Part shown: positions 5,144-28,523 of the stretch, one piece after another | How positions within the stretch are numbered: the stretch's first letter is position 1 | Layout: each line of letters opens with the position of its first letter | Source: a virus | Lineage: Duplodnaviria > Caudoviricetes | IMG/VR virus record: IMGVR_UViG_3300031994_000057 | Coordinates: 22,941 to 86,940 of that record | Reading direction: 5' to 3' (one strand) | DNA length: 64,000 nucleotides | Translations under genes and position numbers: made by a program | Notes under the pieces: model-generated | Databases searched by the model: none | What the model saw: the letters and a program-made list of their open reading frames with translations, nothing else | What the model was told of the DNA's origin: nothing

Positions 5144-5470
5144 TACAACTATATAATAGAAGCATAGAAGATAGAAATTAGATTAATACCTTCAAAACTT
5201 ATTATTCAATAGAATAAAAGTCATTAAAAGATATTACTATCAGGCACGATAGTCTCGTTAATCTTTTCTTTAAGATATAACGATAAATAAGATGTGATGA
5301 TATAAATGGTTTGGCATTTAATATCATTGTCTTTCATATATCTATGGTAATATATCACTGATATATTATGAAGAATATAATATAGACAATCTATCATTAT
5401 TTAATCTCCTTTCTTAATATTTCTTCTATGCTTCTTATCTATATTATATATTATTGAAATTATATACTTT
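5144..5470 (-). other. inverted-repeat-bracketed small-gene cassette C1
   Basis: Early promoter ~5443-5470 (minus); IR 5422-5435 pairs with 5158-5171; convergent late-type promoter TACA-N6-TA at 5144-5155 (plus). Confidence 0.75.
5224..5397 (-). CDS. cassette C1 small protein (57 aa) MIDCLYYILHNISVIYYHRY...YLSLYLKEKINETIVPDSNIF
   Basis: AAAGGAG RBS; clear paralog of the C2 protein. Confidence 0.75.
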   Translation of the reverse strand: MIDCLYYILHNISVIYYHRYMKDNDIKCQTIYIITSYLSLYLKEKINETIVPDSNIF

Positions 5471-5483
5471 TACCATTATACAA

Positions 5484-5800
5484 TACAACTATATAATAGA
5501 AGCATAAGAGATTAAAGAGTAGAGAATAACCAATAAACTTCGCTTGCTAATTATATATCTACACTGTAACCATTAATTACAGTCCATTAATCTTTTCTTT
5601 AAGATATAATGACAGATAATATAATACAATATAAATTACATAGAATTTAATATTGTTTTTCTTCTTATATTCATTTAAATATATCAGAGATATATTATTG
5701 CTGAGAATATAAAGATAATCAGTCATTGAAATAACTCCTTTCATTTTATTTCTCTTATGCTTCTTATCTATATTATATATTATTGAAATTCCTTACTTTT
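5484..5800 (-). other. inverted-repeat-bracketed small-gene cassette C2
   Basis: Early promoter ~5772-5800 (minus); IR 5751-5764 pairs with 5498-5511; late-type promoter at 5484-5495 (plus). Confidence 0.75.
5577..5726 (-). CDS. cassette C2 small protein (49 aa) MTDYLYILSNNISLIYLNEY...YLSLYLKEKINGL
   Basis: AAAGGAG RBS; shares YLSLYLKEKIN with C1. Confidence 0.75.
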   Translation of the reverse strand: MTDYLYILSNNISLIYLNEYKKKNNIKFYVIYIVLYYLSLYLKEKINGL

Positions 5801-6105: not shown

Positions 6106-6148
6106 TAAAATAATGGACTAGGGATATTATATCCCTAGTCCTTATCTT

Positions 6149-11723: not shown

Positions 11724-12143
11724 ATGGAAAACAAGATTACTGTATATGATGTGCAGAAAGTTATGCTTACAGCATTTCAAGATCCGAATATTGTAGCTTC
11801 TTTTATGGAGATGCTTTATGATTACTTTAATAGTACTGCAGGTATTGCAAAGACATCTCTACAAGATCAGGCTATTACAACAAAATACATAGATATAGTT
11901 ACAAAGAAGAAGGTTGATTCATTAAAAACTATATCAAATATTAAAGATTTATATGCTAGCTTTGTCATTAATGTAATTAATACAAAATCATTAGAGTTTT
12001 ACCTAGGTAAAAATAATCCAGAGTATACTAAGATTAAGTGTAGTAGAGAACCAGATATTCATTACTGCGCTGCTGGAGCTGTTTCTGTATTAGATTTATC
12101 CAATGAAACTGATTCTATCTTTAGAATATATCTAATTAATTAA
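11724..12143 (+). CDS. hypothetical protein
   Basis: ORF track. Confidence 0.65.
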   Translation: MENKITVYDVQKVMLTAFQDPNIVASFMEMLYDYFNSTAGIAKTSLQDQAITTKYIDIVTKKKVDSLKTISNIKDLYASFVINVINTKSLEFYLGKNNPEYTKIKCSREPDIHYCAAGAVSVLDLSNETDSIFRIYLIN

Positions 12144-12205
12144 AAATTAATATTATACTAACAAATTAATAGTAGTATTAATATAATATATGGAGGTTAA
12201 ATATA

Positions 12206-23617: not shown

Positions 23618-24724
23618 ATGGAATTTCATATAAATGATAAGGTAAAATTTAAATCAATAAATGAGAATAATGAAATTCGATCTGGTAAAATTACTGAAAT
23701 CATTGATGATAGTTATTTATTTAACAGAAAATTTTATAATATCTGTTCAGAAGGTGAAGTTTATCTAAATATACCTGAAGGGTCCATTATTAGTTATTTT
23801 CCAGTTACAGATTGTATTGAAGATGAATGTGTCGATGCAGTGAAAGAGCAGGAGAGACCTTCCGATAAGTATAAAAATTATAAACGTGGTGATTGTGTTT
23901 ACCTTATAAATGATCCAATGAATGTACACGATCACGTAATTATCACTGCAATTTATTCGGACAATACTATAGGTGTAATTGATTTGCTTGGAAGAGTCTA
24001 TGTATTGGATTTATCGAATACTTTTATAAAACGGAATTTTGGTAATATCATTATTCCTGGGTTTGGCGAAGTAAATGAAACAAGAATACCTGTTTTTGAC
24101 GATTTTAAATATCATTATGGTGATATTGTTACATATACCAGTGGATTAGATAAATATGTTGGAAGAATTGAAAGTGGAATACATATTGAAATAGTCTATA
24201 CAGATTTATATCCATCATCAATTGAATATCAAATTATAAATATAGATAGCTCAATTAATGCATTGAGGAATTATAATGAGATAGAACCTGGTGATTATAG
24301 AATGAAAGAGCAGGAGAATAAAATCACCATGGAAGATATTCGGAACTGTTTCGATGATGACTTTGCCGCAGATGGTGATGATAAGTGTGATGCTGAAGAA
24401 GATTATCGCTGTTCATATCAAGACAAAATTGGATGTCCTGTTGAAATTTTTACAGGTCCATTAGCACCACTTCAATCATTCAAAGATATCTCTGAAATAA
24501 GATTTGATAAACCTGAAATAACTATAGTTTATTCTAATGGCGGAGAGTCTAATGTTGAACTTCCAAAGAATGCATATAATAAGAAAGTAGGTTTTCTCTT
24601 AGCATATCTTAAGGGAATATTAGATGATATAGAATATGCTAGAGTCGCTGGTATTATGGAATCGATCAATAAGGAACCTCAGCAGATTATTGTGAATTTA
24701 GAGACTTATAATGAAGATGATTAG
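23618..24724 (+). CDS. hypothetical protein, tandem paralog 1 (repeated SH3/KOW-like modules)
   Basis: Shares IEPGDYRMKEQE and NGGESN.ELP...YNKKVGFLLAY with the next gene. Confidence 0.7.
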   Translation: MEFHINDKVKFKSINENNEIRSGKITEIIDDSYLFNRKFYNICSEGEVYLNIPEGSIISYFPVTDCIEDECVDAVKEQERPSDKYKNYKRGDCVYLINDPMNVHDHVIITAIYSDNTIGVIDLLGRVYVLDLSNTFIKRNFGNIIIPGFGEVNETRIPVFDDFKYHYGDIVTYTSGLDKYVGRIESGIHIEIVYTDLYPSSIEYQIINIDSSINALRNYNEIEPGDYRMKEQENKITMEDIRNCFDDDFAADGDDKCDAEEDYRCSYQDKIGCPVEIFTGPLAPLQSFKDISEIRFDKPEITIVYSNGGESNVELPKNAYNKKVGFLLAYLKGILDDIEYARVAGIMESINKEPQQIIVNLETYNEDD

Positions 24725-24737
24725 GAGGTATTATATT

Positions 24738-25811
24738 ATGGAATTACAAATAAAAGATAAAGTAAAGTTTAGAAGTGTATCCGAGAACTTAGTAAAGATT
24801 GGTTTGATTAAAAATATTACTCATAAACTTAATAATCCTAATAATAAATATGAGATTCTTGCTGATGACGGAGAATTGTATCTTAATGTATATGAAGATG
24901 ATATAATTAGCTTTCTTGGTTTTGGCCCTTCATATATGACTGATGAATGTAATGATACAGTAGAAGAGTTGACGGCAAACTGTATTGACAAGGCTAAAGT
25001 TGAAGTAGGTGATTGTGTTTATCTTGAGCATAAATCAGATAAAGAAATAAAAGGTGATTTTATCATTACATATATCCTGGGTAATAAAATAGAGTTATTA
25101 TCTTTAACAGGAATACATTATTTTGTTTACAAAGAAAATGTCAAAATCACTGCAAATATAGGTTCTATATTTATTCCTGGAGTAGGATACAGTCATACAG
25201 TATTACTTAATAAAGGTAAAATAGACACAGATACCTTCATGTATAGATTAGGTGATATTGTTACTATTAAAGCCACAAAACGAGTAGGTAAGATTGTTGA
25301 TGCTTATTTCTCTAGAAGTAACGGATGTATAGCATATAAAATTGATTATTTTGATAACAATGAAGATGAGTATATAGTATGGCAACCTTATACTAATATA
25401 GAACCTGGTGATTATAGAATGAAAGAGCAGGAGCAGAAGACTAAATCAGATAAAAATTTTACATATGAATGGGATGAAGAATCAGGACTCTCAGTACATG
25501 GACGCTGTGATAAATGCCCTGCTACGGATATTCTCAATCAAGATTCATTAGCAGGTTTACGTTCTCATGATGATATATGCTCAATAAGTTTTCATAAACC
25601 TTTGGTATCTATATATTATAATAATGGCGGAGAGTCTAATATTGAACTTCCAGAGATTGTATATAATAAGAAAGTAGGTTTTCTCCTGGCATATATTCAA
25701 GGTTTAGTATCAACCAAAGAATATCATAAAGTTATCAGTGTTATGGAATCAATCAACAAAAACCCTCAGCAGGATATTGAATTTGATGAGACTTGTAATG
25801 AAGATGATTAA
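24738..25811 (+). CDS. hypothetical protein, tandem paralog 2
   Basis: Identical RBS/start context GGAGGTATTATATTATGGAATT. Confidence 0.7.
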   Translation: MELQIKDKVKFRSVSENLVKIGLIKNITHKLNNPNNKYEILADDGELYLNVYEDDIISFLGFGPSYMTDECNDTVEELTANCIDKAKVEVGDCVYLEHKSDKEIKGDFIITYILGNKIELLSLTGIHYFVYKENVKITANIGSIFIPGVGYSHTVLLNKGKIDTDTFMYRLGDIVTIKATKRVGKIVDAYFSRSNGCIAYKIDYFDNNEDEYIVWQPYTNIEPGDYRMKEQEQKTKSDKNFTYEWDEESGLSVHGRCDKCPATDILNQDSLAGLRSHDDICSISFHKPLVSIYYNNGGESNIELPEIVYNKKVGFLLAYIQGLVSTKEYHKVISVMESINKNPQQDIEFDETCNEDD

Positions 25812-26081: not shown

Positions 26082-26132
26082 GAAATAGCCAGAGGAGTAT
26101 AATACTCCTCTGGTGTTTTATTTTTTTTTTAT

Positions 26133-26526
26133 AAAAGTTAGATATTTCAATAATATATTATATCTATGAATAAAGTTGAGAAGAAATAATTGTGGAGGCT
26201 ATATGTATGAGAAAGCGACTTAGCTTCATTAAAGATTATTTCGATACTAAATATTGCGAAATCATATATAGACATGATATCCACAATGAGAAATTTATCC
26301 ATAAAATAATTTATTGGATAATCTCAAAAACCATTATTAAATAGCCACCAACTATTTATATTGGTATATCTAGATAATTAATCATCTGATTAATGAGTAT
26401 CATAATAACAATATGTGAAATGGTATAACAATCTTCTCAATAACTTTATTCATATTATTTCATAGTTATTATGATATTAATATCTTAATAGAGAAAGAGG
26501 AGCATAATACTCCTCTTTCTTTTTTT
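26133..26526 (+). other. IR-bracketed small-gene cassette A1
   Basis: Early promoter 26133-26162; IR 26166-26184 pairs with 26432-26453; antisense late-type promoter 26467-26456; terminator 26491-26526. Confidence 0.75.
26207..26344 (+). CDS. cassette A1 small protein (45 aa) MRKRLSFIKDYFDTKYCEIIY...WIISKTIIK
   Basis: GGAGG RBS 8 nt upstream. Confidence 0.65.
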   Translation: MRKRLSFIKDYFDTKYCEIIYRHDIHNEKFIHKIIYWIISKTIIK

Positions 26527-26533
26527 ATAAAAA

Positions 26534-26880
26534 AAAAGTAGATTATTTCCATAATATATTATATCTATGAAAGAAACTAGAATAAATATAAAGAAAGGAA
26601 AATTAATAGATATGAGAAGAATTGTATTTAATCTTAGATCTAAACTTGATGATATTTATATCTCCAGATATTATGAAGATATGATTTCTGATTGTGATAG
26701 GTCTTTCTATTATAATATTTTAAAATACTTATGTATCTTTCTTTATAAGATCGAGCATCTATAATTATCGCAACTAATTATAGATGAGATATCAATCAAG
26801 TTAATATTATATCCCAATTTCTATATATTGACTATATTCTAGTTTCTTTCGTTATCTTAAAGTTAACCTAGTTTTATTTT
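26534..26880 (+). other. IR-bracketed small-gene cassette B1
   Basis: Perfect 16-bp IR 26569-26584 / 26835-26850; antisense late-type promoter 26864-26853. Confidence 0.75.
26612..26764 (+). CDS. cassette B1 small protein (50 aa) MRRIVFNLRSKLDDIYISRYYE...LYKIEHL
   Basis: AGAAAGG RBS; same length and pattern as the B2 protein. Confidence 0.65.
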   Translation: MRRIVFNLRSKLDDIYISRYYEDMISDCDRSFYYNILKYLCIFLYKIEHL

Positions 26881-26885
26881 TTTGT

Positions 26886-27226
26886 AAAAGTTGGTTATTT
26901 CAATAATATATTATAGATATGAAAGAAACTAGAATAAATATGGTACAAAGGAGATGATATAATATGAAGCCTTTGCTTAATAAAGCTAGGTCTATTATAG
27001 ATACTAAATATATTTATATCTTATATGAACTCACACTTCAGAATAAGAATAATAGTATTATCTGTAATATATTATCTATAATTAGTAATGTATTATATAC
27101 ATTAGAGAATTTATAAAATAAATTCATATCTTCATAACTCCATAAGTTAATATAATTCCCAATTTCTATATATTAACTATATTCTAGTTTCTTTCATTAT
27201 CTCAAAGTTAATCATGTTTTATTTTT
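26886..27226 (+). other. IR-bracketed small-gene cassette B2
   Basis: IR 26921-26936 / 27180-27195; antisense late-type promoter 27209-27198; ~80-bp 3' tail nearly identical to B1. Confidence 0.75.
26964..27116 (+). CDS. cassette B2 small protein (50 aa) MKPLLNKARSIIDTKYIYILYE...LYTLENL
   Basis: AAAGGAG RBS. Confidence 0.7.
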   Translation: MKPLLNKARSIIDTKYIYILYELTLQNKNNSIICNILSIISNVLYTLENL

Positions 27227-27228
27227 GT

Positions 27229-27633
27229 AAAAGTAGATTATTTCAATTATATATTATAGATATGAATAAAGCCATGAAGAAATAAATTCATGGAGGATAT
27301 TTAGAATGATTGATAAGATTAAGAATTCAATTATTCAATATTTAAGAGGCAAGATATATTATTTTGTACTATTTAAATATCATCCACGAAGAGACAAAAG
27401 CCCAGAGCATTGAGCTCTGGGTATTGTCCAAAATTCTTAAATAGTCTCACCACTATTAAGAATAAATCTGTAATAAGTTAAATTTCCTCACAAGAATTTA
27501 ACGAGTATCACAATACAATATGTAAAGTAATAATCAAATCTTCATTACAGCTTTATTCATATTACTTTATAGTTATTGTGGTATTAATATCTTAGCAAAG
27601 AAAGAGGAGCACATACTTCTCTTTCTTTTTTTT
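27229..27633 (+). other. IR-bracketed small-gene cassette A2
   Basis: IR 27262-27280 / 27539-27560; antisense late-type promoter 27574-27563; 3' tail and terminator nearly identical to A1. Confidence 0.75.
27306..27444 (+). pseudogene. cassette A2 small protein, apparently frameshifted by 1 nt
   Basis: 35-aa ORF stops at 27413; the +1 frame gives IHEETKAQSIELWVLSKILK, matching A1 IHNEKF...YWIISKTIIK; removing one base gives 45 aa, like A1. Confidence 0.55.
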
Positions 27634-27725
27634 ACGTAGGGTCTATAGATTGAGTCTTAACTTTATTATAATATGTATATTTAGTAAAAATTTATATATA
27701 ATAATTCTAAAAGGAGGATTATACT

Positions 27726-28523
27726 ATGTCATATATTACACCCGGTACAGACGGCAAATGGTATCCTGAAAAGGAACCTGTAATCCCTCGTGTATATCAT
27801 GAACATCTCTCAGAAGAGCAACTTTTAAATTTATACAGCCCTACTGAGATCCAATCTTTATATAACAAAGCGTACTTTGTATCTAATCCTAATGCATTTC
27901 CTGCTAACGGATATCTTGGAGCAAAGTGCGAATATGTAGACAAATGTCAGAGCGGAGCTCGCCTTAAACCTGGTTCAAAGACAACTAATCAGGTTATTAA
28001 GTCTATGAGAATTAGAAACCTTGGTACAGCGAAAGCATGGGTTAGATTATTCATTGCTATCCCTTCAATTCTTGATGATGCTCAGCCCGATTTCGATGCT
28101 TCCAAGAATGTACTTCATTTCAATACAGATTCTGCTAAGGGTCTTGCTGAAGGACAGTGGAACTATGGTAAGGCTATGGATAGAGCAGCTGGCGCATATG
28201 TTGGACCTTCTGGTTGGAACTTTTATGCTACAACTATCAAGGGTATCGCTTACAATGTATATGTAGCTACACTTGAGACAGCTCTTATGCCTGGACAGCT
28301 TTCATCTGAAGCAGTATTCCAGGTATATCTTGATGCTAAGTGCTCTGAAGATGATATCATTAAGATCAATAAGACATTCGGAACAGATAAGTGGCAGATG
28401 TATGCTGCAGCTGAAGCTGTTGCTGCTGAAGGTATTGATGAAGATGATACAGAAGATGCATTCACAGCATTCGCTAAGATTTATGAAGAAGTAGGCGAAG
28501 GAAAGCATAATCCTTTTGCTTAA
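27726..28523 (+). CDS. protein with a phage N-terminal motif fused to a camelysin/SipW-substrate-like beta-sandwich domain
   Basis: RIRNLGTAKAWVRLFIA...FQVYLD...AAAEAVAAEG pattern; PVIPRVYHEHL shared with 33417-33689. Confidence 0.5.
   Translation: MSYITPGTDGKWYPEKEPVIPRVYHEHLSEEQLLNLYSPTEIQSLYNKAYFVSNPNAFPANGYLGAKCEYVDKCQSGARLKPGSKTTNQVIKSMRIRNLGTAKAWVRLFIAIPSILDDAQPDFDASKNVLHFNTDSAKGLAEGQWNYGKAMDRAAGAYVGPSGWNFYATTIKGIAYNVYVATLETALMPGQLSSEAVFQVYLDAKCSEDDIIKINKTFGTDKWQMYAAAEAVAAEGIDEDDTEDAFTAFAKIYEEVGEGKHNPFA

Follow-up and report, generated by a model that had tools for sequence, protein, structure and literature searches.

The 64,000-nucleotide (nt) stretch of viral DNA analysed here (the window, to which all coordinates refer) is part of a single contig of 86,940 bp and 30.9% G+C, which apparently comes from a giant, uncultured relative of Bacillus phage AR9; the contig is a fragment, and its 'jumbo' status is inferred from its relatives. 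At positions 26121–27634 it carries an array of four plus-strand cassettes, arranged head to tail in the order A1, B1, B2 and A2, in each of which an early promoter is followed by a short open reading frame (ORF) enclosed between two complementary arms. Selection on three coupled features can be recognised from the sequence alone: an RNA stem that joins the start of the predicted transcript to its end, a microprotein, and a backward-facing late-type promoter motif in exact register with the stem. We tentatively propose, at a chance that we place a little below even, that the cassettes give rise to end-protected early micro-mRNAs provided with a late antisense off-switch.

In giant phages that have their own RNA polymerases, gene timing is thought to be achieved almost wholly through two promoter classes. 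If the proposal is true, the cassettes would represent a compact and portable expression module by which a message is stabilised and then erased, as well as a natural test bed for the protection of bacterial mRNAs by end pairing. They would further add at least three new families of early microproteins, which are likely host-takeover or counter-defence factors.

Architecture and occurrence of the cassettes

Every unit of the array begins with the 19-nt promoter word ATTTCAATWATATATWATA, which is followed by a purine-rich 5' arm, a Shine-Dalgarno sequence with a short ORF, a 3' untranslated region (UTR) of ~100 nt and, finally, the 3' arm. The starts of successive units lie 401, 352 and 343 nt apart. 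The predicted RNAs, counted from the predicted transcription start (+1) through the 3' arm, measure 236–299 nt, and the ORFs encode 35–57 amino acids (aa). Units A1 and A2 close with strong hairpin terminators, while B1 and B2 lead directly into the next promoter. A first-pass annotation of this region had described four promoter-led units bracketed by inverted repeats in A-B-B-A order, and these are present where it placed them. Its ORF length of 45–50 aa holds for A1, B1 and B2 but not for A2, which is frameshifted and encodes 35 aa. The perfect 16-bp arms that it gave for both B units were recovered in B1, with B2 having a perfect 18-bp stem, and the extension of the pairing into the ribosome site applies to B1 and fails in B2.

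A total of eight cassettes was identified on the contig. These are the four of the array, the minus-strand units C1 and C2, which the same annotation had named and which lie elsewhere in the window, and A3 and A4, which occupy the minus strand 12 kb ahead of where the window begins. Five more cassettes with other arm sequences were found in two related contigs (D1, D2 and D3 in L049; E1 and E2 in L169). The large terminase of L049 and L169 shares 60% identity with that of the present phage; contigs L044 and L166 represent the same phage as L049. The copy number at the syntenic site differs, with one unit in L049 versus two in L169.

Conservation of the terminal stems

The arms of the 13 cassettes form predicted stems of 14–27 bp and fall into at least six arm types. 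In minimum-free-energy folds, the terminal stem closed 8/8 units. The stem energies ranged from -21 to -34 kcal/mol, compared with -9 to -17 kcal/mol when the same cassettes were reversed as controls. Exact inverted repeats 12 nt or longer, spaced 180–350 nt apart, occurred 18 times in the genome versus ~3.5 times in shuffles, and eight of these 18 are cassette arms.

The alignment of the four A-family members, which share a 19-pair stem, showed that 98.7% of the cells pair, that three pairs changed on both sides and that none changed on one side only. When the partner was slid by 1–3 columns, pairing fell to 38–54%. The covariation that had first been noticed between the arms of A1 and A2 is borne out. 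Together with two adjacent compensatory pairs between C1 and C2 and one between D2 and D3, there are six compensatory pairs in total. The arms of D2, D3, E1 and E2, which come from two phages, have their first 11 nt in common and beyond that have diverged jointly with their partners. The earlier statement that the structure rather than the sequence is conserved was confirmed: the arms are of at least six types, the double changes number six, and the A family shows no change confined to one side. The bulges are also conserved, and structure therefore appears to be favoured over sequence identity of the two ends.

The arms have remained intact while the synonymous divergence (dS) of the enclosed ORFs has reached 1.2–2.5, which is saturated. 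B1 and B2 have the same promoter and the same 16-nt arms, and their 3' blocks match at 91%, whereas the peptides share 32% identity. The ends were therefore held by selection, or by repeated conversion, as the cargo drifted. Ends far more conserved than interiors, as in this pair, would also be expected of a DNA-level element without any RNA role, in which the arms either form the terminal inverted repeats that bound a small mobile cassette or serve as patches of homology for shuffling of the PeSL (promoter-early stem-loop) type. The one-versus-two difference at the syntenic site fits such an element as well, and the PeSL junctions of T4-type phages provide a precedent (PMC2839356). We nevertheless consider it quite improbable. 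Shuffling of the PeSL type requires direct junction repeats, not inverted repeats within a unit; the copies are old (dS > 1) and protein-constrained, unlike near-identical miniature inverted-repeat transposable elements (MITEs); and no transposase is present, while the repeats coincide with two predicted transcription starts. PeSL-like shuffling may account for the spread of the cassettes but not for the inverted repeat within each of them.

Other repeat-bearing elements were also considered. A MITE or defective insertion sequence was ruled out by the tandem, old (dS 1.2–2.5) and coding copies, whose identity by codon position follows 2 > 1 > 3. A retron noncoding RNA, a 6S-like RNA and an integron attC site were dropped, as there is neither a reverse transcriptase nor an integrase in the vicinity, the 'loop' is occupied by a translated ORF and the repeats are 250 nt apart.

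Promoter motifs at both edges of the stem

The early promoters mapped in AR9 have the AT-rich consensus AAATATATATTAT-N6-G(+1) (PMC5312081). The four units of the array carry ATATATTAT-N6-G, and C1 and C2 carry ATATATAAT-N6-A. The promoter word was matched 13 times in the window against 1.0 expected, and the whole contig has ~15 promoter-like sites, eight of which head cassettes. Across 153 distinct instances from related contigs, base 7 after TATWAT was G in 71% and A in 20%. Since the spacing is kept in these instances, the predicted +1 belongs to the conserved signal. In 13/13 cassettes, complementarity to the 3' arm sets in between -4 and +2 relative to the predicted +1, and in B1 exactly at +1. 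Sigma-70-like matches were at the level of shuffles (22 versus 20.4). The promoters had been called early on first reading; their match to the AR9 consensus, with arms starting at the predicted +1, agrees with this and places them, by motif, in the AR9-type early class that is used by the virion RNA polymerase (vRNAP).

The late consensus of AR9 is AACA-N6-TA/G, the last base of which is the start (PMC5312081). The sequence AAC[AT]-N6-TA was found on the opposite strand of 8/8 units, representing three independent families, with its last base 0–2 nt beyond the outermost paired base of the 3' arm. The AACA variant is present in A3 and A4 and the AACT variant in the other six units. The genome contains 0.99 such motifs per kb per strand, and such placement within a 3-nt register in three independent families has a chance probability on the order of 1e-7. 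The +1 of the motif also lies 15–45 nt upstream of 11/83 long ORFs, including the large terminase, versus 2.5 expected. In D1–D3, GACA- or TACA-N6-TA occupies the same place, and the TACA version is also found before the terminase of L049. Neither this convergent late-type promoter at every 3' arm nor the strand-symmetric Watson-Crick character of the stems was part of the earlier reading.

Watson-Crick pairs account for 284/286 pairs in the stems, versus 8.5% G.U among the interior predicted pairs. Stems that are nearly Watson-Crick-only are expected if the RNAs of both strands must pair, because a constraint on the sense RNA only would tolerate G.U. The pairing statistics thus indicate that the stem constraint is strand-symmetric. 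Both predicted RNAs would start where the inverted repeat has its outer edges and would share nearly the same purine-rich ~20 nt.

These features could alternatively reflect selection for the same purine-rich ~20-nt start of the sense and antisense RNAs, whether for promoter escape by two phage polymerases or for recognition by a binding factor, perhaps the basic peptide that the cassette itself encodes, in which case the intramolecular pairing would be a by-product. The location of both predicted starts at the repeat's outer edges, the 99% Watson-Crick stems and the purine found on the 5' side in 205/286 stem pairs are all in line with a shared leader. Each arm type is also tied to its own peptide family, but duplication alone predicts this co-occurrence. 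Moreover, bulges of 1–4 nt make the leaders unequal in A1–A4, D1, D2, D3, E1 and E2, and the arm sequences vary between families, which argues against a common polymerase signal. We regard the shared leader as an improbable explanation.

Coding constraint and the toxin-antitoxin alternative

The enclosed ORFs showed codon-position identity in the order 2 > 1 > 3 in 10/10 ORF pairs, and the ratio of nonsynonymous to synonymous divergence (dN/dS) was ~0.15–0.34 where dS was measurable. A good ribosome site is present in every unit. This substitution pattern indicates that the ORFs are genes which evolve under protein-level constraint. The peptides form at least three families, the first being A, the second B and C (possibly distant kin of A) and the third D/E, plus D1; D2, D3, E1 and E2 make up one family across two phages. 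A search of ten peptides against Pfam and PHROGs returned nothing below E = 0.02, and the A-family profile found no homologue among 5.8 billion proteins. AlphaFold models of moderate confidence (predicted local distance difference test, pLDDT, 73–75) consist of one long helix for A and of a helix with three strands for D/E. The D/E model had no Foldseek match in the PDB at E <= 0.001.

The first-pass annotation had suggested type I toxin-like mRNAs that are kept silent or stable by end pairing. According to such a model, a host-directed toxin would be encoded by an mRNA that remains untranslated in a fold-back lock, in the style of hok or aapA1, until it is processed, and the antisense RNA would be the antitoxin. 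The small ORF, the long 3' UTR, the end pairing and the predicted cis-antisense RNA would be in line with such a model. In addition, the ribosome site is predicted to be almost wholly paired in full-length B1, A2, A3 and D3, and the minus-strand terminator of A2 would yield a short antisense RNA over the 3' end, as at txpA/RatA-type loci. The peptides, however, do not resemble hydrophobic membrane toxins. Eleven of the 13 are basic (net charge +1 to +7), the best 17-aa Kyte-Doolittle means of 0.6–1.7 vary within each family and are not consistently at transmembrane level in any of them, and the D/E peptides are modelled without a membrane helix. The ribosome site is not predicted to be occluded in A4, B2 and C1; its unpaired probability in the predicted closed RNA ranged from 0.00 to 0.71 and was mostly unaltered by removal of the 3' arm. 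Ribosome-site occlusion was rejected as a common function owing to this inconsistency among units, which leaves the idea that the messages are kept silent weak; that they are kept stable is plausible. A late-class antisense promoter would further suggest a timer rather than a constitutive antidote. The toxin reading is therefore weaker than that of end protection with an off-switch, and we consider it unlikely.

All four A units have a hairpin at the stop codon, with covarying stems and C-rich loops (CCACCAA, CTCACC, CACCAC and CCCCA) in a very AT-rich context. The loop resembles an anti-Shine-Dalgarno sequence, although its fit to the unit's own ribosome site is not clean. In A2, a frameshift at TTTAAAT has left the N-terminal part and the family-like C-terminal part in different frames, and the latter runs on in the +1 frame up to the family's stop-codon hairpin. 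The promoter, arms, stop-codon hairpin and terminator of A2 are intact despite the frameshift. Given this frameshift and the minus-strand terminator hairpin at 27401–27421, A2 may therefore now be chiefly an RNA unit, accompanied by a short antisense RNA.

A proposed stabilise-then-erase mechanism

In the mechanism that we tentatively favour, the virion polymerase would start at the G six bases past TATTAT and produce a monocistronic mRNA of 236–299 nt, coding for one mostly basic protein of 35–57 aa that belongs to no known family. The first 14–27 nt of this mRNA would pair with its last 14–27 nt, resulting in a closed 'panhandle'. We infer that the panhandle would keep 5'-end-dependent RNases off the 5' end and exonucleases off the 3' end, and the few early transcripts would thereby persist (compare hbs of B. 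subtilis). A message so stable would need an active off-switch. Late in infection, the non-virion polymerase would fire the opposite-strand AACW-N6-TA promoter and start at the outer edge of the 3' arm. The putative antisense RNA would pair with the 3' UTR, oust the 5' arm, open the panhandle and form a long duplex for RNase III, which would turn the early protein off.

RNase III could also act on the stem itself, which might serve in processing and insulation by cutting the unit out of tandem read-through transcripts, in the manner of the stems that flank 16S/23S rRNA or of the T7 early sites. Read-through is likely in B1, B2, C1, C2 and E1, which have no hairpin terminator ahead of the next promoter, and stems of 14–27 bp with conserved bulges or internal loops are reminiscent of many RNase III sites. 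However, since the promoter of each unit is placed exactly at the arm, the primary transcript already has the 5' end that cleavage would create, and the opposite-strand promoter is left unexplained. As a separate explanation we give processing a low probability; the predicted cleavage overlaps with end protection and late shut-off and does not exclude them.

Several observations weigh against end protection with an antisense off-switch. The pairing does not occur at the majority of early promoters in related phages, nor at 40/41 in AR9, and in the A units the 3' arm sits 35–40 nt ahead of the terminator and not at the extreme 3' end. Arms that are Watson-Crick-only also fit a DNA-level or 'same leader' explanation. 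Upstream of ORFs, the late motif is enriched only about twofold relative to composition-matched controls, which themselves reach up to ~2x their own expectation. In the relatives, the motif starts with G or T and not A, is absent from that place in E1 and is shifted by 6 nt in E2. Finally, the set of host RNases is an assumption of the proposal.

A broader form of the proposal, which we hold to be rather doubtful, would treat these units as a distinct, strand-symmetric 'panhandle cassette'. The early sense and late antisense RNAs would share their first ~20 nt and each close on itself, and the stem would be read by RNase III or by the cassette's own basic peptide, each cassette thereby timing or autoregulating its own product. 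This would amount to a general programme, stable early and actively erased late, for host-directed microproteins in phages with their own polymerases.

Distribution among related phages

A duplex scan compared the first 28–30 nt with the following 400 nt at ~580 early-promoter-like sites from ~180 related IMG/VR loci, with reversed sequences as the control. Only the present cassettes, D1–D3 and E1–E2 clearly exceeded the reversed control. No cassette was found at the sampled promoter sites of five larger relatives (G001–G005), and a metagenome search with the neighbouring genes returned only contigs of 1–5.6 kb, none with a cassette. The distribution of the cassettes among related phages is patchy. 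The array DNA had no blastn match in 50,697 phage records, and our literature search found no paper describing this cassette design.

In AR9, 5'–3' pairing was detected at 1/41 early promoters, that of g237, where it spans 14 bp, covers the ribosome site and adjoins the terminator, without a late motif. At this locus (KU878088, 204050–204560), the 14-nt segment that begins at the predicted +1, GAUGGAGGUUUAAG, contains the ribosome site and is perfectly complementary to the sequence just ahead of the terminator. A site at 11951 of L011, a contig of another jumbo phage, was rejected as a further cassette on inspection. Its early promoter (region 11940–12200) drives a clearly hydrophobic 52-aa peptide that begins with MLFLKLLALCYTLGL, and the 5'–3' complementarity is weak and non-terminal, so that the design differs.

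Comparison with known systems

Type I mRNAs with a fold-back lock are known from hok/sok and from aapA1/IsoA1 of H. pylori. The cassettes resemble them in having a small ORF and predicted full-length pairing of the 5' and 3' ends; a putative cis-encoded antisense RNA would follow from the promoter motif in register with the 3' arm. They differ in that hydrophobicity of the peptides and predicted occlusion of the ribosome site both vary from unit to unit, and the antisense RNA would come from a promoter of the late class.

Pairing of the 5' UTR with the 3' UTR has been described for the hbs mRNA of B. subtilis, where a 14-bp pairing modulates RNase Y cleavage (PMC5737220), and for the icaR mRNA of S. 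aureus (PMC3868564). In these short monocistronic mRNAs, a duplex of ~14 bp between the leader and the 3' UTR lies just ahead of the terminator, which is comparable to the 14–27 predicted pairs of the 13 cassettes. The hbs and icaR pairing modulates attack by RNase Y or RNase III and translation, whereas that of the cassettes is a prediction. Unlike hbs and icaR, the cassettes are predicted to pair from the first transcribed base and are modular, with 13 members and at least six arm types; they reside in a phage with its own RNA polymerases and are coupled to an opposite-strand promoter motif in 8/8 units of this genome.

The PeSL arrays of T4-type phages (PMC2839356) are similar as arrays of small orphan early genes with their own early promoters, often with terminators, with conserved junctions, variable cargo and variation in copy number. 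The PeSL itself forms locally, as a stem-loop at a sigma-70-type promoter, and serves as both terminator and recombination patch. In the cassettes, by contrast, the repeat brackets the whole gene, its arms covary as a stem, and the promoter is of the type used by the AR9 virion polymerase. The combination of a sigma-70-like promoter with a local stem-loop terminator was not found in the cassettes, and terminator–promoter junctions occur at the A units only.

AR9 has the same early (TATTAT-N6-G) and late (AACA-N6-TA/G) consensus, and seven antisense late promoters have been mapped in it (PMC5312081). The AR9 antisense genes g125 and g126 were rejected as analogues, because their antisense RNAs overlie late structural genes. 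From their sequence, the cassettes appear to combine 5'/3'-UTR pairing, cis-antisense control and the early-gene cassette, to which they add a covarying start-to-end stem in register with both promoters.

Layout of the array and genomic surroundings

The features of the array and of the C cassettes are listed in Table 1. Arms of different units are also complementary. The 5' arm of B1 matches the 3' arm of B2 (26567–26591 with 27173–27197, 25 nt, 88%), and that of A1 matches the 3' arm of A2 (26165–26185 with 27541–27561, 21 nt, 81%). Transcripts that read through the A-B-B-A array could therefore adopt alternative closures nested within one another.

Table 1. Positions of the cassette features in the window.
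Feature	Position	Strand	Details
C2-facing late-type motif	5147–5158	+	AACTATATAATA
C2 cassette	5158–5460	-	Promoter 5460–5442; predicted +1 5436; 5' arm 5435–5422; ORF 5397–5224 (57 aa); 3' arm 5171–5158
C1-facing late-type motif	5487–5498	+	AACTATATAATA
C1 cassette	5498–5789	-	Promoter 5789–5771; predicted +1 5765; 5' arm 5764–5751; ORF 5726–5577 (49 aa); 3' arm 5511–5498
Hairpin terminator 5' of array	26088–26114		Scores on both strands
A1 early promoter	26144–26167	+	AR9 vRNAP-type; TATTAT 26156–26161; predicted +1 = G 26168
A1 5' arm	26165–26185	+	
A1 ORF	26207–26344	+	45 aa; preceded at 8 nt by GGAGG; belongs with A3 and A4 to the A protein family
A1 stop-codon hairpin	26338–26358	+	C-rich loop CCACCAA; present in 4/4 A units
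A1 3' arm	26432–26455	+	3-nt bulge
A1-facing late-type motif (AR9 type)	26456–26467	-	AACTATGAAATA; predicted antisense +1 2 nt beyond arm
A1 intrinsic terminator	26490–26529	+	
B1 early promoter	26545–26568	+	Predicted +1 = G 26569, the arm's first base
B1 5' arm	26569–26584	+	Perfect 16 bp; pairing extendable to ~26597, reaching the ribosome site
B1 ORF	26612–26764	+	50 aa
B1 3' arm	26835–26850	+	Within 70-nt block 91% identical to B2
B1-facing late-type motif	26853–26864	-	AACTTTAAGATA
B2 early promoter	26897–26920	+	Predicted +1 = G 26921
B2 5' arm	26919–26936	+	Perfect 18 bp
B2 ORF	26964–27116	+	50 aa; 32% identity to B1
B2 3' arm	27180–27197	+	
B2-facing late-type motif	27198–27209	-	AACTTTGAGATA
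A2 early promoter	27240–27263	+	Predicted +1 = G 27264
A2 5' arm	27260–27281	+	Stem has a small bulge, like that of A1
A2 ORF	27306–27413	+	35 aa; off the A-family frame from the TTTAAAT run onward
GC-rich hairpin within A2	27401–27421	-	Scores as minus-strand terminator; possible end of ~170-nt antisense RNA
A2 3' arm	27541–27562	+	
A2-facing late-type motif	27563–27574	-	AACTATAAAGTA
A2 intrinsic terminator	27597–27634	+	Array end

The window encodes the beta subunit of a multisubunit RNA polymerase (phrog_2986, E 4e-62), GroEL and the large terminase, which as judged from these matches is the gene set of AR9/PBS1-like giant phages. The beta subunit has one relative in IMG/VR. A scan of the whole window with Rfam 15 at gathering scores gave 0 matches.

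Directly 5' of the array, at 23618–25811, are two tandem paralogues of 368 and 366 aa that are alike at their N- and C-termini and belong to no Pfam family; they are followed by an 85-aa gene and then by the terminator that scores on both strands. The first gene past the array (27659–28523) encodes 265 aa, is higher in G+C, and has no Pfam or PHROG match and no relative in IMG/VR. A late-type motif, AACTTTATTATA, lies 56 nt upstream of its start, and the product is probably a late protein made in abundance. At 6115–6141, in the interval that separates the C cassettes from the terminase region, a perfect 12-bp hairpin scores as a terminator on both strands and could end the antisense RNAs of C1 and C2.

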